Virus record (IMG/VR): IMGVR_UViG_2816332589_000001
Location: 72,929-136,928 of that record
Source: a virus
Taxonomy: Duplodnaviria; Caudoviricetes
Length of the DNA: 64,000 nt
Strand: one strand, 5' to 3'
Position 1 is the first letter of the stretch; the number at the start of each line of letters is the position of its first letter. The notes beneath the pieces were generated by a model. The model ran no database searches, was not told the DNA's origin, and saw nothing but the letters and a program-made list of their open reading frames with translations. The position numbers and the translations under genes are program-made. Positions 12,618-63,963 of this stretch are shown in pieces.

Positions 12618-13064
12618 TCAGGTGCCGAGAGCGTCGAGCGCTACCCGTTTGCTTGGCCACGGTCCACGCTCGCCGTCCGTGGCCGGATCGGTCGGCAGGG
12701 CCCACCACTGGCGCGGGGCGCGGCGTACGACCCGAAAGCGCCGGCCGGACCACCAGCGGTCACGGGGCAGGCCCATCCAGGCGTCCCGGGCCCTGACCCA
12801 TTCCTCGGTGCCGACCGCCTGTGCGATCTGCTCCAGCAGGTCCCGCCGCCGGAGGTGCGCGAAGATCAGCCCGCCGCCGGTCCCGTCCTTCAAGTGCTGC
12901 GCCCAGGTCGCGAAGGCGTTGCCGTGCAGGTGGTCCATGTACGGCTCCGCCGACCACAGTCCGCTCCGCGACCGGTGAGCGTGACGCACGACGAGCACCA
13001 CGCCGTCGATGTCGGCGTACCGCGTCTCCCGGTGCCGCGTGCTGCGCGGGGCCTGCCCGGTCAT
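12618..13064 (-). CDS. Hypothetical protein, last gene of the leftward array
   Basis: MTGQAPRSTRHRETRYADIDG...; coding-like codon usage. Confidence 0.6.
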   Translation of the reverse strand: MTGQAPRSTRHRETRYADIDGVVLVVRHAHRSRSGLWSAEPYMDHLHGNAFATWAQHLKDGTGGGLIFAHLRRRDLLEQIAQAVGTEEWVRARDAWMGLPRDRWWSGRRFRVVRRAPRQWWALPTDPATDGERGPWPSKRVALDALGT

Positions 13065-13078
13065 CGGGTCGGTGTAGC

Positions 13079-13501
13079 TCAGGCAGATGTCTGCGGGCCG
13101 CACGGCGCATCCTCTCCGTCGCGCTGGGGTTCTTCCGCACCTTCGGTGGTCTCGGGAGCGGAATCGTTCCTGCTGTCGGCGAGGAGCTGCTTCACGAGCC
13201 GGATCGGCACGCCAGTGGCCAGGGCGATATCGCCCAGCGTTGCCCGCCGCAGGGCCAGGGCCCTTACCGCCTCGGCCAGGGCCGCTGTACGGGCGTCCTC
13301 CGCGGCCCGCAGCTGCTCCAGCTCCGGCGTCGTCGGGACGATCGTGACTTCGGCGGTCACGTCGAGGAGTGCAAGCCCCTCCTCGACGTTCTTGCGCAGC
13401 GCCTTCAGCGTCCGCCCGTGCCCGTAGACCCCGTACTCGGGGACGCGCGTCGTCCAGCCCCGGCCGCGCCGGTCGGCCCGGCACTCGATGGTCTCGCTCA
13501 C
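13079..13501 (-). CDS. HicB-like antitoxin with C-terminal HTH
   Basis: RRGRGWTTRVPEYGVYGHGRTLKALRKNVEEGLAL matches the HicB N-terminal pattern; TLGDIALATGVP HTH; GTGA coupling to the recombinase gene. Confidence 0.7.
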   Translation of the reverse strand: MSETIECRADRRGRGWTTRVPEYGVYGHGRTLKALRKNVEEGLALLDVTAEVTIVPTTPELEQLRAAEDARTAALAEAVRALALRRATLGDIALATGVPIRLVKQLLADSRNDSAPETTEGAEEPQRDGEDAPCGPQTSA

Positions 13502-14712
13502 GCTCCGCTCTCCATGTCCTCGATGACCTGCTGCACGACCAGGTCCGGGATGGGGGTGGGCAGGACGATCTGCCGGCCACCGATCCGGTACAGCGTGTGC
13601 CCCCCGCTGCTGCGCACGGACGTGACGGTGAGTCCGTGCCGGCGGGCCGCGGCGCGGATACGCAGCAGCGGCCCGCCTTCCTCCGCCCCCGCGCGCAGGC
13701 TCGCGGTGACCTCTTGGGCCGCCTTCCACTCCTCCACGGTGACCACCGCCTCGTGCACGGGCCGCGGCGACCACACCCATTGCGAGACCGGGTTGTACTT
13801 GGAGAAACCGGGGCGGCCGGTGCGGGTCGCCCGACGGTTGTACACCTGGTAGCCGGTGAGTTTCGGGTTGGCGATCAGGCTTTCCACGCGGTTCCATGTC
13901 CACCGGTCCTCGATCGGGTACCGGTCGGGCTCCGCCTCCAGGATCGCGGCGATGTCTGAGCCCGTCAGGTGCTCCTCGCGCCGCAGCCGACACAGGGTCC
14001 GGGCCGCGTCGAACCGGCGCTCGTCGGGATGCCGGGCCAGCTTCTTCTTCGGCCGGACCACGCCGAACCGGCCGTCCCGTACGGGGGCGTTCTCATCGAC
14101 CACCGCGATGTACGGGTAGGGCGGGTAGCCGTGGTTCCAGCCGTTGATGGCGTGCTGGATCTGGCCGCCCATCGACATCTCCATCAGCGTGGCCCGGTAG
14201 ACCTCGGCATCGACCTGGCCGTACCGGCGAACGCGCAGCCGGCCGGACTCGGTGCCGCCCGTCGGCTCGTTGGCGTAGACGACCTCCACGCCGATCTTGC
14301 TCAGCTCGTGTTCCACGGTGAGGCTGGTCAGCATGTGGCGTGCCACCCGGTCGGAGCGCTCGGCCAGGACGTGGGTGACACCGAGCTGCTCGACCCGGTC
14401 CGCGAGGTCCTGGAAGCCGCCGTCGCGCGGGGTCGGCACGGCGAGCGCGTCGTACATCTCCTGCGGCGCGAGGCCCCGCAGCTCCGGGGGCAGCATCCCG
14501 GACTCGACATCCCAGAAGTACGCGACGAACTCCTCGCCGGGCTCCAGACGCGCGGAAGCGAGGGAGACCTGCCTCGGGATGGAGGTGGCCGGGTTCTGGT
14601 TGTCCTTGGTGCTGACCCTGCCGAGGAACGCCGAGCGGCGGGGGCGGGAGTCGGCCGGCTCGAAGGCGGGCATGTCGGTGAGGTCGATGGGCGGCCCGAA
14701 TGGATTGGTCAC
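13498..14712 (-). CDS. Serine recombinase (resolvase plus recombinase domain) with HicA-like C-terminal domain
   Basis: FLGRVSTKDNQ catalytic Ser, DVESG, ERSDRVAR, PPYPY, NPKLTG and HEAVVT motifs. The tail RSSGGHTLYRIGGRQIVLP is HicA-like. Confidence 0.85.
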   Translation of the reverse strand: MTNPFGPPIDLTDMPAFEPADSRPRRSAFLGRVSTKDNQNPATSIPRQVSLASARLEPGEEFVAYFWDVESGMLPPELRGLAPQEMYDALAVPTPRDGGFQDLADRVEQLGVTHVLAERSDRVARHMLTSLTVEHELSKIGVEVVYANEPTGGTESGRLRVRRYGQVDAEVYRATLMEMSMGGQIQHAINGWNHGYPPYPYIAVVDENAPVRDGRFGVVRPKKKLARHPDERRFDAARTLCRLRREEHLTGSDIAAILEAEPDRYPIEDRWTWNRVESLIANPKLTGYQVYNRRATRTGRPGFSKYNPVSQWVWSPRPVHEAVVTVEEWKAAQEVTASLRAGAEEGGPLLRIRAAARRHGLTVTSVRSSGGHTLYRIGGRQIVLPTPIPDLVVQQVIEDMESGA

Positions 14713-14806
14713 GGCATTCCTATGGAATGAAGGCCCGGTTGGGCGGTGAACGGTAGGAAGGTGGTGTGGCCTCGGAGCCCGGGGCCTGGTCGCCCCGGGG
14801 CCGGTG

Positions 14807-15754
14807 TCAGCGCTGGAGGGCGGCGGCCTGCTTCCACCACATCTCGCGCAGCGCGGCGTAATCGCGGGCCTGCGCGCACAGCCCGCGGTGCTCGCCCATG
14901 CCTCCCGACAGAGGCGTGTGCAGGTGCGGGATGACCGGGCGCAGCAGCTCGGCGTAGTCCTGGCCACCGAGAAAGATCACGTCGGCGTCGTACGTACCGA
15001 GGTCGAAGACCTGCTCAGCGAGCCGCTCGGGCGTGATGGCCTGCGGGTCGCCGATCGTCACGTCGTACGGGAGCAGCGGGCGCTCCAGGTCCACCAGGCC
15101 GTGCCGCGCGGACAGAATCCGGATGAGCGAGGCGTCGGTCAGGGCGTCGGCAGCCAGCCGCAGGGACCGGTGATACTGCCCGGTGTACAGCTCCCCCGCC
15201 GGGTAGCCCGGGTTGGCGTTCCCGTACTCGTTGTACCCGGGGTGCGGTGCCTTTTCCTGGCCGCACGCGATGATCACGATGCGGCGGCGGTGCACGTCGA
15301 TGCCGCCGCGCTGCCGGGCGTACGTCCGGCCGGCCGGGGTGAGATACAGGGAATAGCCGTGCTGGCCGAAAGACGTGGCGTAACCAGCGGCCTGGACGGC
15401 GCGGAGGGTGGGGGCGCGGAACCACCTTGCTCCTTCCCAGTACGCGCGGTCGTCCCGGCCGGGTACGAGCTGATCGGGACGACCGGCGGCCGTCACGATC
15501 GCCTCGTGCTGCACCGCGGGCAGCTTGGGCAGGAACGACTCGACCGCCGGTGCTGGAGCGGGGCCGTGCTGCTGCCGCCAGTGGTCCAGGGCCGCCCGTC
15601 CGGCCTCGGTCATGCGGTGGGTGCCGCCGTCGCCGGCGTGCCGGACGACCAGGCCGTCGGCCTCCAGCCGGGCGATGGCCGCGGCGTGGCCGGACACCAC
15701 ACCGTCGTCGTGGGCGTCGAGGATCTTTGCGCCCGTGGGGCTGAGCAGGCTCAT
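14807..15754 (-). CDS. Protein with N-terminal wHTH-like repeats and C-terminal DUF6884-like domain
   Basis: IVIIACGQEK...PAGELYTG...ILSARHGLV...PYDVTI...FLGGQDY. Confidence 0.7.
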   Translation of the reverse strand: MSLLSPTGAKILDAHDDGVVSGHAAAIARLEADGLVVRHAGDGGTHRMTEAGRAALDHWRQQHGPAPAPAVESFLPKLPAVQHEAIVTAAGRPDQLVPGRDDRAYWEGARWFRAPTLRAVQAAGYATSFGQHGYSLYLTPAGRTYARQRGGIDVHRRRIVIIACGQEKAPHPGYNEYGNANPGYPAGELYTGQYHRSLRLAADALTDASLIRILSARHGLVDLERPLLPYDVTIGDPQAITPERLAEQVFDLGTYDADVIFLGGQDYAELLRPVIPHLHTPLSGGMGEHRGLCAQARDYAALREMWWKQAAALQR

Positions 15755-16250: not shown

Positions 16251-16459
16251 GGTTCGCCGCCGAAGCACTCGCCGCAGGTCGCGCGCGGCTCCTCGGCGTG
16301 ATCCGGGCAGACCTCCGCGACCGTGTAGGGGGTGTTCCCGTCGTCGGCGTCGGTCAGGGCGTCGGCTACGGTCTGCGCTTCGCGGTGGCCAGCGTCGCCG
16401 TAGAACGGGCCATCGACCATCGCCGTGCCGTGTTCGAACACGCCGTACTCGGCGCTCAT
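16247..16459 (-). CDS. Small protein with CxxH...CxxC end
   Basis: ATGA coupling; CPDHAEEPRATCGEC. Confidence 0.6.
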   Translation of the reverse strand: MSAEYGVFEHGTAMVDGPFYGDAGHREAQTVADALTDADDGNTPYTVAEVCPDHAEEPRATCGECFGGEP

Positions 16460-47922: not shown

Positions 47923-48276
47923 GTGCACGAGATCGAAGAGCCGGAGCAGGTACCGCCGTGGCGTGAGGAGGACGGCCCGCGGCCGCGCGTCTGGCGCTGG
48001 CCCGCAGGCGACACCCCGGCCCTGTACGTCAGTGTCCGTATCCGCGGCCGCGAGAAAATCTTGTATGCCCCCGTCAGGGCCCGCCTGGACCACCCCGACG
48101 GCACTGTCGCCTACCACGTTGACATCAACCTCGGGGACGGCACGGTGCACCGCGCCTACCGGTGGCCGCAGCCGGGCCTGCACATCGCCCACCGCAGCCG
48201 CTCCGCGCCTGCCGACCGCGAGCCGACCCCGAAGGTCGGCCGGAGCTCCGGCCGCATCGACGCGGCCGACGCGTAG
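47923..48276 (+). CDS. Hypothetical protein
   Basis: APVRARLDHPDGTVAYHVDI...HRAYRW. Confidence 0.6.
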   Translation: MHEIEEPEQVPPWREEDGPRPRVWRWPAGDTPALYVSVRIRGREKILYAPVRARLDHPDGTVAYHVDINLGDGTVHRAYRWPQPGLHIAHRSRSAPADREPTPKVGRSSGRIDAADA

Positions 48277-48304
48277 TCCGCACCTGGGGGTGCCCCCGGT
48301 AGTT

Positions 48305-48973
48305 ATGCAGGACATGGAACCCAACACGGTTTTCGAAGCGATCACTGGTGTCCCGGCTCCCCGCGACGAGGCCGCGGTCGCCGAGCCAATGAACCTGGAG
48401 AATGCGGGAGCCGCCTGCGACTTCTGCCCTAACGGCCCGCTCGTCGGCCTTGAGTCGCCGCCGGTGGTGTGGGCTTTCCCGGCCGGCCAGGCCGAGGACT
48501 CCCGCGAACTCGTCCCCGGCTCCGGCATCAAGATCGGCCTGCCCATCGCCGCGATGCTCTGGAAGGCGTGCGAGCGCTGCCGCCGCCACATCAAGGCGAA
48601 CCGGTGGGCCGACCTGGCCCGCGACTGCGGCCTCCCCGAGGGCGGTTTCGGTGCCTGGCAGGGCTTCCGGGTCGCCCGCCGGCCCGGCCCCGGCTACGCC
48701 TGGCCGCTGGTGCCGCACAAGCTGCCCACCGTGCACAAACACGTCCGCGACGCCTGGGAGAAGGGCAAGCGCGCCTTCGCCGACCACGTCCGCGAGCGCC
48801 TGGAGCGCGCCGTGCTGCTCGTGGAACTCGACGGCCACCTGTACGTGCGCTGCGGTCAGGACGGCGACGACGCATGGCTGGTCGAGAACGTCGGCGCGGA
48901 GATTGTGGCCCCGTTCAGCTTCCACCTGGAGGGCCGCAGCGTCCGTCTCACCCTGCTCCCTGCCCATCCGTAG
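48305..48973 (+). CDS. Hypothetical protein with CDFC...CERC zinc site
   Basis: 3' coding-like part of ORF 47576-48973. Confidence 0.65.
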   Translation: MQDMEPNTVFEAITGVPAPRDEAAVAEPMNLENAGAACDFCPNGPLVGLESPPVVWAFPAGQAEDSRELVPGSGIKIGLPIAAMLWKACERCRRHIKANRWADLARDCGLPEGGFGAWQGFRVARRPGPGYAWPLVPHKLPTVHKHVRDAWEKGKRAFADHVRERLERAVLLVELDGHLYVRCGQDGDDAWLVENVGAEIVAPFSFHLEGRSVRLTLLPAHP

Positions 48974-48994
48974 CCGCTCACCCGTCTGAGCGGC

Positions 48995-49790
48995 GGGCAC
49001 CGAACGGCCCGGTACCGACGGGGGATGCGGTACCGGGCCTGCCCGACAGCCTAGCCGTGCCAGACTGGCGGCACTCAACTTCCAGACGGCAAAGGGGCGG
49101 GGCGGGCAGTGAGCGACGGGCCTACGGTGTACGAGCTGATGGACGGCACGGACGAGGAGAAGAACCTCGCCGATGACTTCGCCACGATGTTGGATGTGCT
49201 CTCCCGATTCCTGGGTGCCGTCGAGGACGGGAACTGGGCGTACGCCGACGACAAGGCATGGCAGGTCCGGACCTGCCTTGAGGCGTTCCAGCGCCGCCTG
49301 ACGAAACCCGTCCTGAACGCTGTGGGCGACGTGGAACGGGACGAAGACGGTCGGGCCGTACGGCGCTTCGCGCCGCCCAACGCCGATCCCGCGCGGCTCC
49401 ACCAGCTCATCACCGCCTTTGCCCAAGACCACTCGGCCGGGCGCCTGCTGTTCCCGCTCGACCGGCTGGAGAACGAGCAGGCGAAGGCGAAGATCGTGGA
49501 GAAGGCGGAGTGGCTCGCCGAGCTGCATAAGAAGCTCGACGCCGGCGACGAGGCCGCCGCCTCCGCGATGACCGGCACGAAGGTGCAGATCGTCTACGGG
49601 ATGACCCGCGATGGCGGTCGCTAACCGCGCCAAGCGCCTGCACGCCTTGGCCCGCAAGCTCGATGACCGCTTCGACCTGCCGCGCGGCACGGTCCGGGCC
49701 GAACTGGACGAGTACCAGCGTCCGGCGCAGTGGTATCTGCGGTGGGCACCGAACGGCCCGGTACCGACGGGGGATGCGGTACCGGGCCTG
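48995..49790 (+). repeat. Exact 47-bp direct repeat with internal 12-bp inverted arms
   Basis: GGGCACCGAACGGCCCGGTACCGACGGGGGATGCGGTACCGGGCCTG at 48995-49041 and 49744-49790. Confidence 0.92.
49109..49624 (+). CDS. Hypothetical protein between the 47-bp repeats
   Basis: 171-aa ORF with coding-like codon usage. Confidence 0.7.
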   Translation: MSDGPTVYELMDGTDEEKNLADDFATMLDVLSRFLGAVEDGNWAYADDKAWQVRTCLEAFQRRLTKPVLNAVGDVERDEDGRAVRRFAPPNADPARLHQLITAFAQDHSAGRLLFPLDRLENEQAKAKIVEKAEWLAELHKKLDAGDEAAASAMTGTKVQIVYGMTRDGGR

Positions 49791-49796
49791 TACTGA
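49611..49796 (+). pseudogene. ORF apparently truncated by the second 47-bp repeat
   Basis: The last ~16 codons (WAPNGPVPTGDAVPGL) are read through the repeat itself. Confidence 0.5.
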
Positions 49797-49813
49797 CTGT
49801 ACTCGGTGATCGA

Positions 49814-51196
49814 CTACATGAAGTCATCCCGTTCCAGAACGGGTTGGGCCGACTGCGACATCAGGTAGTAGTAGACGGCTTCGATCGTGTCCGCCGGGTG
49901 CCGCCCCACCTTCGTGGACGGCTGGAACGGCTTGTCCGCGACCTTGCTCCACCCGCCTTGCTCATCGGCGACCTTCGAGAACTCGCAGGCCAGGGTCTCG
50001 GCGACCTCCACGTACCGCTTCGGGTTCTGCGTCCACGCGCGCAGCACCGAGATGACGGAGGTGACGCACTCCTCGCTGTACCGCTTCGGCTTGTCGTCCA
50101 GATCGCCGCCGATCGTCCACGCGAGCCGGTAGAGCGCCTCCGACTCCCAGGAGCCCTCACGGCCCGCGACCAGCGAACCGCCCTCGTAGCCGCGTGGCGA
50201 CGAACTGCGCTTGTACTCGACGGCCAGGCGGAACAGGGCGACGAGCACCGAGCCGGCCGCCTTCACCCCGGCGTCGGCGAGTGCCCCGCGCAGCACCAGG
50301 TCGTCGCTCGGGTCGCTCGGCCCGACCGGGCGCAGCGGCCCGTGCTGCGCCTCCAGTTCCTCCAGCGTCAGCGGTTCCTCGGGGCGGCCCGGCCGCAGCC
50401 CGGCCCAGTCGATCGCGTACCGGACGGGCTCTTCCGCGGAGGCGATGTGCCAGCCGCGGTTGAGGCGGTCCACGAACCGGTACGTGGGGCGCTCCTCGGG
50501 CTGCGGCTCCGTGTCCACCGCGCTGTTCTCCTCTGCGTTCTCGTCGGCGGGCACCAGGGAGGGGTGCACGTCCGTGGTGACGAAAGCGGCCTCCAGACCG
50601 CCGGCCTTCTCCTGGATGTCGTCCGCCTTGTCCGGGCCCATCGGCAGCGCCTCGGGCTCGGCGGCCACGCCGGGGAACTCGCGGGCCAGCTCGGCGGTGA
50701 CGGCGGTGAGCGCGTCCTGCACCAGCTTGGAGAGTTCAGCACGGTCGAAGTCGCCGTCCGCGGTCCTCAACGGTCGCCCGGCGGCCACCGTCACGAGCAA
50801 GGTCAGCAGGTCGTGCTCCTGCCGGTGAGGGTCGGGCATCCGCGTGGGCAGGGGCCACACGTACGCCAGGGCCCGGTACCAGCCCTCCCCCTGCCTGACG
50901 AGGTAGGCGCACGCGTCGGCCACGGTCTGCGCCACGTGCTCTTCGTCGGTGTCGCGGGCCACTGTCGCGGTGAGCATCACGGGGATGGCGAAGGGCTCCC
51001 GGCCTTCACTGGCGTACGCGTACGGGGACTTGGGCACTCCGGCCGGCGGCGCTCCGGCGGAACCGTCGGCGGCGCGGATGCGGTCGTTCTCCCGCATCAC
51101 CGCGGTGTACTGCGCGCCCGTCGTCCTGCTGCGCTCGCGCAGCTCCCGAGACCGCTTCCTCGGCTTCCTGGGCTTGCCCGGCTTGTTCCTCGCCAT
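49814..51196 (-). CDS. Multi-domain hypothetical protein with basic N-terminal RxxSxxTGxxY motif
   Basis: GGAG RBS; 460 aa; internal LTLEELEAQHGPLRPV phage-type module. Confidence 0.75.
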   Translation of the reverse strand: MARNKPGKPRKPRKRSRELRERSRTTGAQYTAVMRENDRIRAADGSAGAPPAGVPKSPYAYASEGREPFAIPVMLTATVARDTDEEHVAQTVADACAYLVRQGEGWYRALAYVWPLPTRMPDPHRQEHDLLTLLVTVAAGRPLRTADGDFDRAELSKLVQDALTAVTAELAREFPGVAAEPEALPMGPDKADDIQEKAGGLEAAFVTTDVHPSLVPADENAEENSAVDTEPQPEERPTYRFVDRLNRGWHIASAEEPVRYAIDWAGLRPGRPEEPLTLEELEAQHGPLRPVGPSDPSDDLVLRGALADAGVKAAGSVLVALFRLAVEYKRSSSPRGYEGGSLVAGREGSWESEALYRLAWTIGGDLDDKPKRYSEECVTSVISVLRAWTQNPKRYVEVAETLACEFSKVADEQGGWSKVADKPFQPSTKVGRHPADTIEAVYYYLMSQSAQPVLERDDFM

Positions 51197-62354: not shown

Positions 62355-62791
62355 CCGAGCAGCGACCGAAGCGACTGGACGCCGGAAGTGATGCAACGGC
62401 CGTGCAGTGGGCGGACTTCCTGGAGGCCCGCACCAAGGAGGAGTTGGAGGCCGCCGACGCCTTTGTGACCCAGAGCTGGTGGGAGCTGACGGAGCCGGGC
62501 GCGCGCCGGTTCGGTGTCCAGGGGATGGGCGGCCGGGTCTTCGCGCCGGTCCTCACCGGCTCCGGCCACTGGCTGGACCAGGCCACCGCCCTGCACATCG
62601 TCCGCAACCAGCCCCGGCGCACACGTGACGATCTCCTGGGCAAGCTGATGCTGATCGGTCTGCTGAGGAACCAGATCGCGGAGGAAGGCGGATCGCTCGT
62701 CGGGCCGCTCCTCCTGGTCGTGCAGCAGTTCGCCGCCCCATTCATCGACCACCCCGACCACCCCGAGTATCAGGCCCCGGAGGAGCCGTGA
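62351..62791 (+). CDS. DUF6221-like protein
   Basis: DFLEART.EE...HIVRNQPRR...FAAPFIDHPDH. Confidence 0.65.
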   Translation: MTEQRPKRLDAGSDATAVQWADFLEARTKEELEAADAFVTQSWWELTEPGARRFGVQGMGGRVFAPVLTGSGHWLDQATALHIVRNQPRRTRDDLLGKLMLIGLLRNQIAEEGGSLVGPLLLVVQQFAAPFIDHPDHPEYQAPEEP

Positions 62792-63963
62792 CAGAGCTGG
62801 TGGAGCAGGTTATCGACGCCGAGCTGGTCACCCTGGACGAGCTGGCGGTGGCGCCGGAGCCTTCCCCCGTCCAGTACAAAGTCGATCAGCACACAGTACT
62901 GGGCCCGGGGCAGCTTCCGCCGCGCGCCGACGAGACGCCCGGATGGACCGACGCCGACTTCCGTGTCTCCGCGGAGGACATCGAGGAGCTGAGCGATCCC
63001 GACCTCGCGGAGAACACGCTGTACAACCGCAAGCGGTCCGTGGCGGCCTTTGAGGCGTGGTGCGCGAAGGAGGGGCGGGTGGCGTGGCCGTGCACCACGG
63101 CGACGTACACCGCGTACGGGCTCGAACTGATCCGCCGCGGGAAGCAGGGTGAGTTCGCGCCGGACACCGTCCGGCAGTACATGAACCGCATCTACCAGTG
63201 GCAGCCCGAGAAGCTGCGCCCCGATCCGACCCGGGTCCGGGCCAAGATCCGCATCTGGCGAAAGCAGTGGAAGGCGGCCGGCGGGGAGGTACGCCGCGCG
63301 GCGGCGCTCACCATCCCCTATCTGCTCAAGTGCCTGAAGCAGTGCGACGAGAGCACTCACATCGGCATCCGGGACGCCTTCGCGCTGGCCCTCGCCTATC
63401 ACAATCTCCACCGCCGCAGCGAGCTGACCGACCTCCTGGAAGCCCACATCAAGATCATGGACTCGGGTCTGGTCGTCACCACCGCCACCTCTAAGACGGA
63501 CACGAACTCGAAGGGCTCGACCGAGTTCCTGGCCGACCGGCCCGACACGCAGCTCGTCCGTCGCGCGCGGGCCTGGTTCGCGGTGCGCGAGAAGATCGGC
63601 GCGGGCGGCCCACGCCGGCCGGTGTTCATGGCCCTCACCGTCAAGGGCAATCTGGCGTCCCGGAAGCTGGCCACCAAACGCGGGGAGCACCTGAAGCCGG
63701 GTGCGATCAACGATCGCGTCCAGCTGCTCGCCGACCGGGCCGGCGTCCCCTACATCGCGGGGAAGAAGGTCACCGCGCACAGTCTCCGGGCGGGACCGAA
63801 CACCGACATGATCCAGGCAGGCGTCCCCTTGGCCGAGCGGAACCGGCGTGGGCGGTGGTCGCCGGAAGCGACCACGGCGGACACCGTCTACGACCGGCCG
63901 CACAACGCGGGACGGAGCGACCCGCTGGCGAAGGTGCCGGTCGGCGGCTACCCGGCGGACTGA
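62788..63963 (+). CDS. Tyrosine recombinase, Cre-like
   Basis: RRSEL (Arg), SKTD (Lys), AHSLRAG (HxxR), GRW (Trp) and VYDR (Tyr) form a complete catalytic set. Confidence 0.9.
   Translation: MTELVEQVIDAELVTLDELAVAPEPSPVQYKVDQHTVLGPGQLPPRADETPGWTDADFRVSAEDIEELSDPDLAENTLYNRKRSVAAFEAWCAKEGRVAWPCTTATYTAYGLELIRRGKQGEFAPDTVRQYMNRIYQWQPEKLRPDPTRVRAKIRIWRKQWKAAGGEVRRAAALTIPYLLKCLKQCDESTHIGIRDAFALALAYHNLHRRSELTDLLEAHIKIMDSGLVVTTATSKTDTNSKGSTEFLADRPDTQLVRRARAWFAVREKIGAGGPRRPVFMALTVKGNLASRKLATKRGEHLKPGAINDRVQLLADRAGVPYIAGKKVTAHSLRAGPNTDMIQAGVPLAERNRRGRWSPEATTADTVYDRPHNAGRSDPLAKVPVGGYPAD

Follow-up and report, generated by a model that had tools for sequence, protein, structure and literature searches.

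A family of actinomycete serine recombinases with a HicA-like C-terminal tail and a co-translated HicB-type partner

Introduction

Why should a serine recombinase end in a domain that resembles a toxin, and why should its gene run directly into one that resembles the matching antitoxin? The question is raised by a 64,000-nt stretch of DNA (the window; positions 72929-136928 of the 136,928-bp IMG/VR record IMGVR_UViG_2816332589_000001), in which the gene for a 404-aa serine recombinase with a HicA-like tail (13498..14712, minus strand; window coordinates are used unless stated otherwise) overlaps the gene for a 140-aa HicB-type partner (13079..13501, minus strand). The zinc ribbon and coiled coil of serine integrases recognize the outer halves of the attachment (att) sites and impose directionality. 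Working from the sequence alone, the original prediction had placed the HicA-like domain where these two elements would be expected and had offered two roles for the pair, namely an addiction toxin carried by the recombinase itself or a HicB that sets the direction or activity of recombination through the HicA domain. Here, we find that the pair is conserved across actinomycetes and that its two halves resemble the two halves of a hicAB operon, and we suggest, with a probability of roughly 45%, that a HicAB pair has been co-opted as the docking, DNA-binding, and control module of a recombinase.

Results

The recombinase gene is a stop-free frame with a GTG start and a TGA stop, and it is recognized by Pfam, by PHROG, and by structure. 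Pfam Resolvase (PF00239) matches residues 97-184 at 26.9 bits (cut-off, 23.3), and Pfam Recombinase (PF07508) matches residues 249-335 at 30.9 bits (cut-off, 21.1), the latter being the only PF07508 match in the whole 137-kb record; PHROG phrog_95, labeled "integrase," covers residues 99-337 (E 1.4e-18). The catalytic resolvase-type domain (about residues 26-190; 14143..14637, minus strand) contains GRVSTKDNQ with Ser34 and SDRVAR with Asp121, Arg122, and Arg125. R32, S34, D121, R122, and R125, which we take to be the serine-recombinase active site, do not vary among the 40 family members aligned, and judged by residue conservation, the recombinase is catalytically intact. The "Recombinase" domain, which is the first DNA-binding domain of large serine recombinases, comes next (about residues 200-340; 13693..14115, minus strand), with a predicted local distance difference test score (pLDDT) of 84-92 in the model. 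The AlphaFold2 model of the whole protein (mean pLDDT, 69.2; recombinase domain and tail, 81-92) matches the structures of the phiC31, Bxb1, and Listeria-phage (LI) integrases, with a best Foldseek E value of 9.6e-8.

Only about 64 residues follow the recombinase domain, predicted to form a helix, three strands, and a helix, and the translation ends ...LLRIRAAARRHGLTVTSVRSSGGHTLYRIGGRQIVLPTPIPDLVVQQVIEDMESGA. This segment has no zinc ribbon, since no Cys occurs after residue 340, and no Pfam family matches after residue 335. In the nearest outgroup found (from Protofrankia, 38% identity), the place of the tail is taken by a zinc ribbon rich in Cys and by an extended C-terminal region. Together, these sequence features place the family in the large-serine-recombinase lineage, yet without the zinc ribbon and the coiled coil.

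We compared the tail (residues 345-404; 13501..13680, minus strand) with 27 Pfam-verified HicA proteins from 201 actinomycete genomes. When 28 tails were aligned to this set with hhalign, the match reached 94.4% (E 9.2e-8, 46 columns), with the conserved tail His (His372; codon at 13597-13599, minus strand) falling on the invariant His of the HicA Gly-Ser-His and the tail LP-x-P pairing with the HicA VP-x-H. Among 31 scrambled controls, the reversed HicA alignment gave 0.6% and the 30 column shuffles gave 1.7% or less, and the tail scored 0.2% against unrelated alignments; because 94.4% stands against at most 1.7% in the scrambled controls, the likeness to HicA is above chance. A profile built from the 28 tails retrieved only 22 proteins from 1.84 billion representative sequences, comprising family members and their fragments, two long proteins in which the matched stretches were short and numerous (P0191 and P0193), and three small free-standing proteins (P0198, P0201, and P0202; tail-profile E 3e-6 to 7e-5), which score 21.2, 24.8, and 32.7 bits, respectively, against Pfam HicA_toxin (cut-off, 27). 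In the distant family member P0203, the tail itself matches HicA_toxin (E 0.0088). The free-standing HicA P0201, used as a query, returned P0201 alone, and the tail profile gave chance-level rows only against Protein Data Bank (PDB) sequences. A tail-only AlphaFold2 model (pLDDT, 82.9) has helices at 6-18 and 50-63 that enclose strands at 23-29, 32-37, and 40-45, a predicted alpha-beta-beta-beta-alpha topology of the type seen in HicA and in double-stranded RNA-binding domains (dsRBDs). Foldseek with this model returned nothing at E 0.001 or better, its top rows being dsRBDs (ADAR1, E 0.078) and four HicA (1whz, 6g26, 6hpb, and 4p78; E about 0.5, TM score 0.41-0.55), and VIA-align placed HicA at Z 4.2 (6g26_E) and 4.1 (5yrz_D), with unrelated alpha/beta domains up to Z 6.2. 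Taken as a whole, the comparisons indicate that the tail very probably descends from HicA, in agreement with the original prediction that a HicA domain takes the place of the zinc ribbon and coiled coil.

The partner gene begins within the last codons of the recombinase gene. A 4-nt GTGA overlap, read in the sequence (13498..13501, minus strand), combines the partner GTG (13501-13499) with the recombinase TGA (13500-13498) and, by this arrangement, couples translation of the two genes; the coordinates, the tail residues, and the overlap are all in the sequence as they had been described. The protein comprises an N-terminal domain (about residues 1-58; 13328-13501, minus strand), a helix-turn-helix (HTH; about residues 75-108; 13178-13279, minus strand), and a variable, acidic C-terminal end. 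Pfam and NCBIfam made no family call for the window's partner. Its family has 61 homologues, many of them on contigs that match in size those with recombinase homologues, and weak Pfam matches occur among 36 members, including the UPF0150-like PF21748 in 7 (best E 0.0067), HTH_Tnp_ISL3 in 14, Sigma70_r4 in 5 (best E 4.6e-6), and other HTH families. These HTH scores are below or near cut-off and the window's own partner has no HTH match, so the HTH call rests on family members.

A clearer signal came from the neighbors of genuine hicA genes. When the partner profile was run against all 1096 open frames of 31 such loci, it matched four (E 7e-7 to 8e-5), and each of the four is the gene immediately downstream of hicA (4 of 31 loci). 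The hhalign match between the partner family and these four hicA partners reached 97.2% (E 2.8e-11) over 110 columns that cover the N-terminal domain, the linker, and the HTH. A merged partner profile also matched PDB entry 2yzt_A over residues 1-56 (E 0.014), a protein-language-model search placed "antitoxin HicB family" clusters among the nearest (scores of 0.90 and 0.88; leads only), and one IMG record labels a partner homologue "predicted RNase H-like HicB family nuclease." On these sequence comparisons, the partner probably derives from a HicB antitoxin with a C-terminal HTH, the one cognate to the HicA of the tail; the HicB-type N-terminus and HTH first proposed for it, weak in Pfam, are better supported by this homology to the partners of real hicA genes. 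As a separate observation, the HicA proteins at five loci whose partners resemble that of the window (L067, L071, L073, L076, and L078) end in ...I-E-[KR]-D-L, which resembles the ...V-I-E-D-M-E of the tail and could point to the subfamily that donated it.

The fusion is not a peculiarity of one strain. The family extends to at least 54 species-level genomes and 5 viral contigs, the window's record included, and at least 120 recombinase homologues were listed, all covering 94-100% of the query and most of them 401-411 aa long; the hosts among those listed are Streptomyces, Nocardia, Kitasatospora, Amycolatopsis, Umezawaea, Nocardiopsis, and Actinocatenispora. An RTGA overlap followed by a profile-recognized partner was found in 49 of the 54 genome loci, which span several actinomycete genera, the five exceptions being two disrupted loci (L018 and L053), a locus whose end has changed (L050), the outgroup with the zinc ribbon (L055), and one fusion (L038). 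In this last locus, from Actinocatenispora comari (P0108), a single chain of 524 aa runs from the recombinase through the tail and a linker of 12 residues into the HicB-like protein, and the same Rec-HicA-HicB junction, with slightly different residues, recurs in independent metagenome sequences (P0206-P0208). The pair is also carried by four further IMG/VR contigs (overlap and partner in 3 of 4) and by four large actinomycete plasmids (two full-length), where RefSeq labels the genes "recombinase family protein" and "hypothetical protein" with a 4-nt overlap; GenBank phages gave no tblastn match at E 1e-5.

Nor does the tail appear to be made as a separate HicA. Across 49 loci, no column between residues 330 and 356 has ATG, GTG, or TTG in more than 16% of the sequences, and the tail thus lacks a conserved in-frame start codon of its own. 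Nucleotide similarity between loci typically runs from the recombinase start to about +1.53 kb, inside the partner gene, and the other neighbors vary, with DUF6884 genes at 8 of 54 loci and phage-type upstream genes at 3-5 of 54. By these sequence comparisons, the recombinase and its partner make up a two-gene module that is conserved among actinomycetes and their mobile elements. Decayed copies were also seen, in which the recombinase or partner frame is broken (L018, L053, L109, and protein P0197); one of them is a 252-aa call running from the tail through out-of-frame sequence into the partner.

Does the tail retain what a HicA toxin needs? The Gly that lies two residues before the His is present in 13 of 52 tails compared to 26 of 27 real HicA proteins; of the 39 tails in which it is replaced, 37 have A (15), D (8), E (7), or S (7), and two more have R or V. 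The second HicA motif, VP-x-H, reads LP-x-P in most tails. In Burkholderia pseudomallei HicA, the G22C substitution abolishes toxicity, and Gly22 and His24 are both needed (PMC3969222). Judged by these sequences, most members of the family have probably lost some or all of their ribonuclease (RNase) toxicity. The median ratio of nonsynonymous to synonymous substitution rates (dN/dS) is 0.20 in the core compared to 0.49 in the tail, which is still under purifying selection, and mean distances are 0.44 for the tail, 0.46 and 0.44 for the partner, and 0.25 for the core, so that the tail changes at the pace of the partner. A mirror-tree test did not discriminate, with a partial correlation of 0.53 between the tail and the partner N-domain given the core and of 0.54 between the core and the partner C-domain given the tail.

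The record that carries the window has an exact 99-bp terminal repeat and, for this reason, is probably circular. Among its predicted products are a portal protein of phage type (E 1.9e-43), a prohead protease, ERF, an FtsK-like protein, and a giant protein of 5645 aa that contains SNF2 helicase domains; ParB and a ParA-like ATPase are encoded at record positions 47984-49893, and a separate tyrosine recombinase lies at window positions 62629-63963 (plus strand). From its gene content, the replicon looks like a 137-kb phage-plasmid or plasmid-prophage, and its integrase may be an enzyme other than the serine recombinase. The record's gene cluster upstream of the recombinase is shared by two contigs, of 131 and 138 kb (L009 and L003), from Streptomyces assemblies.

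Around the module itself, a ribosome-binding site, AGGAA, was read in the sequence at 14717..14721 (minus strand), and the GTG at 14712 is likely the recombinase start because the AGGAA lies 5 nt upstream of it and homologues have ATG at this position behind the same AGGAA. A GC-only hairpin (14778..14799, minus strand) with an 8-bp stem (CCCGGGGC/GCCCCGGG) and a 6-nt loop stands just past the stop of the upstream DUF6884 gene (14807-15754, minus strand; Pfam E 5.5e-12) and may separate that gene from the recombinase operon. Consensus promoter and terminator scans of the region gave no match, the hairpin escaping the terminator scan since it has no T-run. In PADLOC, the DUF6884 protein matches the defense candidate PDC-M57A (E 7.5e-12), with a weak match to DpdC as well (E 6.7e-4). 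The partner gene is followed immediately by a 148-aa open reading frame (ORF; 12618-13064, minus strand) that has no Pfam, PHROG, or PADLOC match and no counterpart among the 54 loci. An exact 21-bp direct repeat (15131-15151 and 16346-16366) falls within two upstream genes and, among the repeats close to the module, is the only conspicuous one in the 137-kb record (E 2e-4).

Flanking repeats were found at a few of the 54 loci (L007, L016, L054, L041, L039, and L012, with a marginal 17-nt repeat at L035). At L007, L016, and L054, a 47-bp direct repeat with dyad symmetry lies at -1886..-1840 (-2052..-2006 at L016) and +1672..+1718 from the recombinase start, where it flanks a 3.6-3.7-kb block of orfX, DUF6884, recombinase, and partner and occurs as two copies per 10-13-Mb genome. 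We do not claim it as a recombination site; both copies are part of coding sequence, where they specify one and the same peptide (FDPE[AV]HRVVR...), and the repeat may be a duplicated gene fragment. At L041, which represents another lineage, a strongly palindromic, hairpin-forming 52-bp direct repeat lies at -1257..-1206 and +1584..+1635 from the recombinase start. An insertion-sequence-like element with conserved ends was also considered and rejected, since similarity between loci typically stops at gene boundaries and the breakpoints differ between relatives. For an RNA-guided recombinase acting through the dsRBD-like tail, we found no conserved non-coding flank able to encode a guide.

Discussion

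From the architecture, homology, conservation, and coupling described above, we infer a function, and the reading that we favor, at somewhat under even odds, is co-option. Under this hypothesis, the zinc-ribbon and coiled-coil region of a large serine recombinase was replaced by a domain descended from HicA, on which the HicB-like protein, probably as a dimer, would dock at about one partner per tail, as HicB does on HicA. The partner would then supply a second, HTH-based DNA-binding element and a bridge between subunits, replacing the zinc ribbon and the coiled coil, and the complex would probably repress its own operon, as in ordinary hicAB operons.

Several observations weigh against co-option, and they are best considered with the alternatives on which they bear. 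One alternative is that a working toxin-antitoxin system sits inside the recombinase, with an active RNase tail and a labile HicB-like neutralizer, such that the toxin would be freed when the cassette is lost after excision or when a trigger such as infection occurs, and the module would thereby enforce its own maintenance or serve in defense. Of 52 tails, 50 keep the His that aligns with the catalytic one, and the window's tail, which reads G-G-H, keeps the Gly as well, a pattern that a live RNase would explain equally well; the Gly-His pattern first noted in this protein therefore holds for the window and, as far as the His is concerned, for the family, whereas the Gly holds for only the minority of tails counted above. 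Gene order and an HTH-bearing partner are those of classical class 3 hicAB operons as the 2024 survey text describes them (PMC10865869), and the replicon, with its ParA and ParB, is of the plasmid-prophage-like kind in which addiction modules are usual. In related Streptomyces islands, the block of orfX, DUF6884, recombinase, and partner is an indel: the "empty" islands L101, L102, and L105, compared with L007, lack the block and keep the same flanks on the left and right, separated by 93-198 bp that hold a small unrelated ORF sharing its first 17 nt with orfX, a pattern that suggests cassette exchange at conserved junctions. On this evidence, the module behaves as a dispensable accessory block, like toxin-antitoxin and defense cassettes, and it sometimes adjoins the DUF6884 gene with its match to a candidate defense family, although neither the recombinase nor the partner matches PADLOC. 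Against a working toxin stand the replacement of the Gly that B. pseudomallei HicA needs, the LP-x-P found in most tails, and the strong constraint on the core, which suggests that recombination is the selected function. A covalent Rec-HicA-HicB chain, moreover, cannot act by differential decay; HicA-HicB fusion proteins have been described, however, and are considered functional in the same survey (PMC10865869), so the single-chain form does not exclude toxin activity. We consider a working toxin-antitoxin system unlikely, and the addiction toxin originally proposed is weakened by the loss of the Gly and by the natural single chain. Quite improbable, too, is that the tail is a live RNase restrained by the HicB-like subunit so that the recombinase doubles as a toxin. 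If it were so, a DNA-rearranging enzyme would become an mRNA-cutting one once the cassette had been excised and lost or some trigger had stripped away the partner, and site-specific recombination would be directly coupled to addiction or abortive infection.

The HicB-like protein might instead be a recombination directionality factor (RDF) that, by binding the tail, sets whether the recombinase integrates or excises, in the manner of gp3 with phiC31 integrase. Known RDFs bind the C-terminal region of large serine recombinases, the very region that is replaced in the HicA-tailed family (PMC3783163 and PMC5499577, as far as their accessible text goes, and the titles of solved integrase-RDF complexes), and a dedicated partner that recognizes the tail would be well placed for this job. 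As a family, RDFs share no sequence feature that defines them. A switch, however, needs separate timing, which co-translation in 49 of 54 loci and fusion in one lineage do not allow, and the coiled coil that imposes directionality in known systems is absent. Searches for repeats around the module found nothing meaningful in the window or in the whole 137-kb record, and no attP/attB-type sites emerged from these or from the 54 loci, a result that counts against the directionality factor and against the co-opted role alike. We regard a directionality factor as very unlikely, and this proposal of the original prediction fits poorly with obligatory co-translation. It is at least as doubtful that the tail is a generic small alpha/beta domain that merely resembles HicA and that the downstream gene encodes an unrelated small HTH regulator of the recombinase operon. 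Several nulls speak for this view: Pfam and NCBIfam make no HicA call on the window's tail and no HicB call on its partner, Pfam HicA_toxin (PF07927) matches 1 of 28 tails and only at E 0.15, and a genome-wide HicA_toxin scan of five recombinase-carrying genomes did not match the tails. Fold searches by themselves do not single out HicA, placing it among many unrelated alpha-beta-beta-beta-alpha domains, so that the HicA fold expected at the outset is matched in predicted topology, without being told apart from those domains by the searches. The partner scores 0.14% directly, and 4.9% with a merged alignment, against Pfam-verified HicB_lk_antitox, a set of only 3 sequences in 201 genomes; with the hicA partners as intermediates, the comparison reaches 43%, which makes this link transitive and weak. 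On the other hand, two independent profile-profile links (94.4% and 97.2%) lie far above controls and point to the two halves of one kind of operon in the same gene order, and the generic view must also accommodate the retrieval of free-standing HicA by the tail profile from 1.84 billion sequences and the HicA_toxin match of the P0203 tail.

How does the module compare with known systems? Like the phiC31, Bxb1, and Listeria A118-type LI integrases, the window's recombinase has an N-terminal catalytic domain with a Ser nucleophile and an Arg/Asp set, followed by a "recombinase" domain; unlike them, it has a 60-aa HicA-like domain instead of the zinc ribbon and coiled coil and is 404 aa long compared to roughly 450-600 residues in solved integrase chains. 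XisF of the Anabaena fdxN element is also a large serine recombinase, and it relies on the small accessory proteins XisH and XisI, which to our knowledge are unrelated to HicB. The best NCBIfam match of the window's recombinase is to recomb_XisF, a partial match of 32.8 bits against a cut-off of 375 and thus far below equivalog level.

Among hicAB systems, the closest in layout is class 3 (Gerdes 2024, mBio, PMC10865869), in which a HicA-type gene is followed by a HicB N-domain with a C-terminal HTH in closely coupled frames. There, HicA is a free 60-aa toxin and not the C-terminus of a recombinase; in our family, furthermore, the Gly of the Gly-Ser-His loop is not conserved, and neither the tail nor the partner reaches Pfam cut-offs. 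The class 14 SMC-HicA fusions of that survey likewise attach HicA to the C-terminal end of a protein that handles DNA, and its class 11 single chains of HicA, HicB, and HTH recall the 524-aa Actinocatenispora protein, but here the fusion partner is a site-specific recombinase and nearly all members keep a separate HicB-type gene. As in the Tn3-family transposons that carry a toxin-antitoxin pair beside the resolvase gene (PMC7157771), the pair is physically, and probably regulatorily, tied to a recombinase; in those transposons, toxin and resolvase are separate proteins, and a term search of the main text of that article found no mention of HicA. Full-text literature searches yielded genome-annotation co-mentions and no published serine recombinase-HicA fusion, consistent with the remark made at the outset that no system of this form had been described. 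The 14 classes of HicA context in the 2024 survey, as given in the text available, include no recombinase, and its supplementary tables could hold such cases (PMC10865869). Relative to the 14 contexts catalogued there, a serine recombinase family with a hicAB-type module, whether co-opted or still toxic, adds a further one.

Large serine recombinases are workhorses of genome engineering, in which the zinc ribbon and the coiled coil choose the sites and fix the direction of the reaction. The family described here, natural and widespread, has dropped exactly those parts and has the putative interface of a toxin-antitoxin heterodimer in their place. If the partner is a required DNA-binding or bridging subunit, the module would be a compact two-component serine recombinase (404 + 140 aa) that could be switched by supplying a second protein, and it would plainly exemplify the recruitment of a toxin-antitoxin pair to a task other than toxicity. 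If, on the other hand, the tail has stayed toxic, a single polypeptide would tie recombination to addiction.

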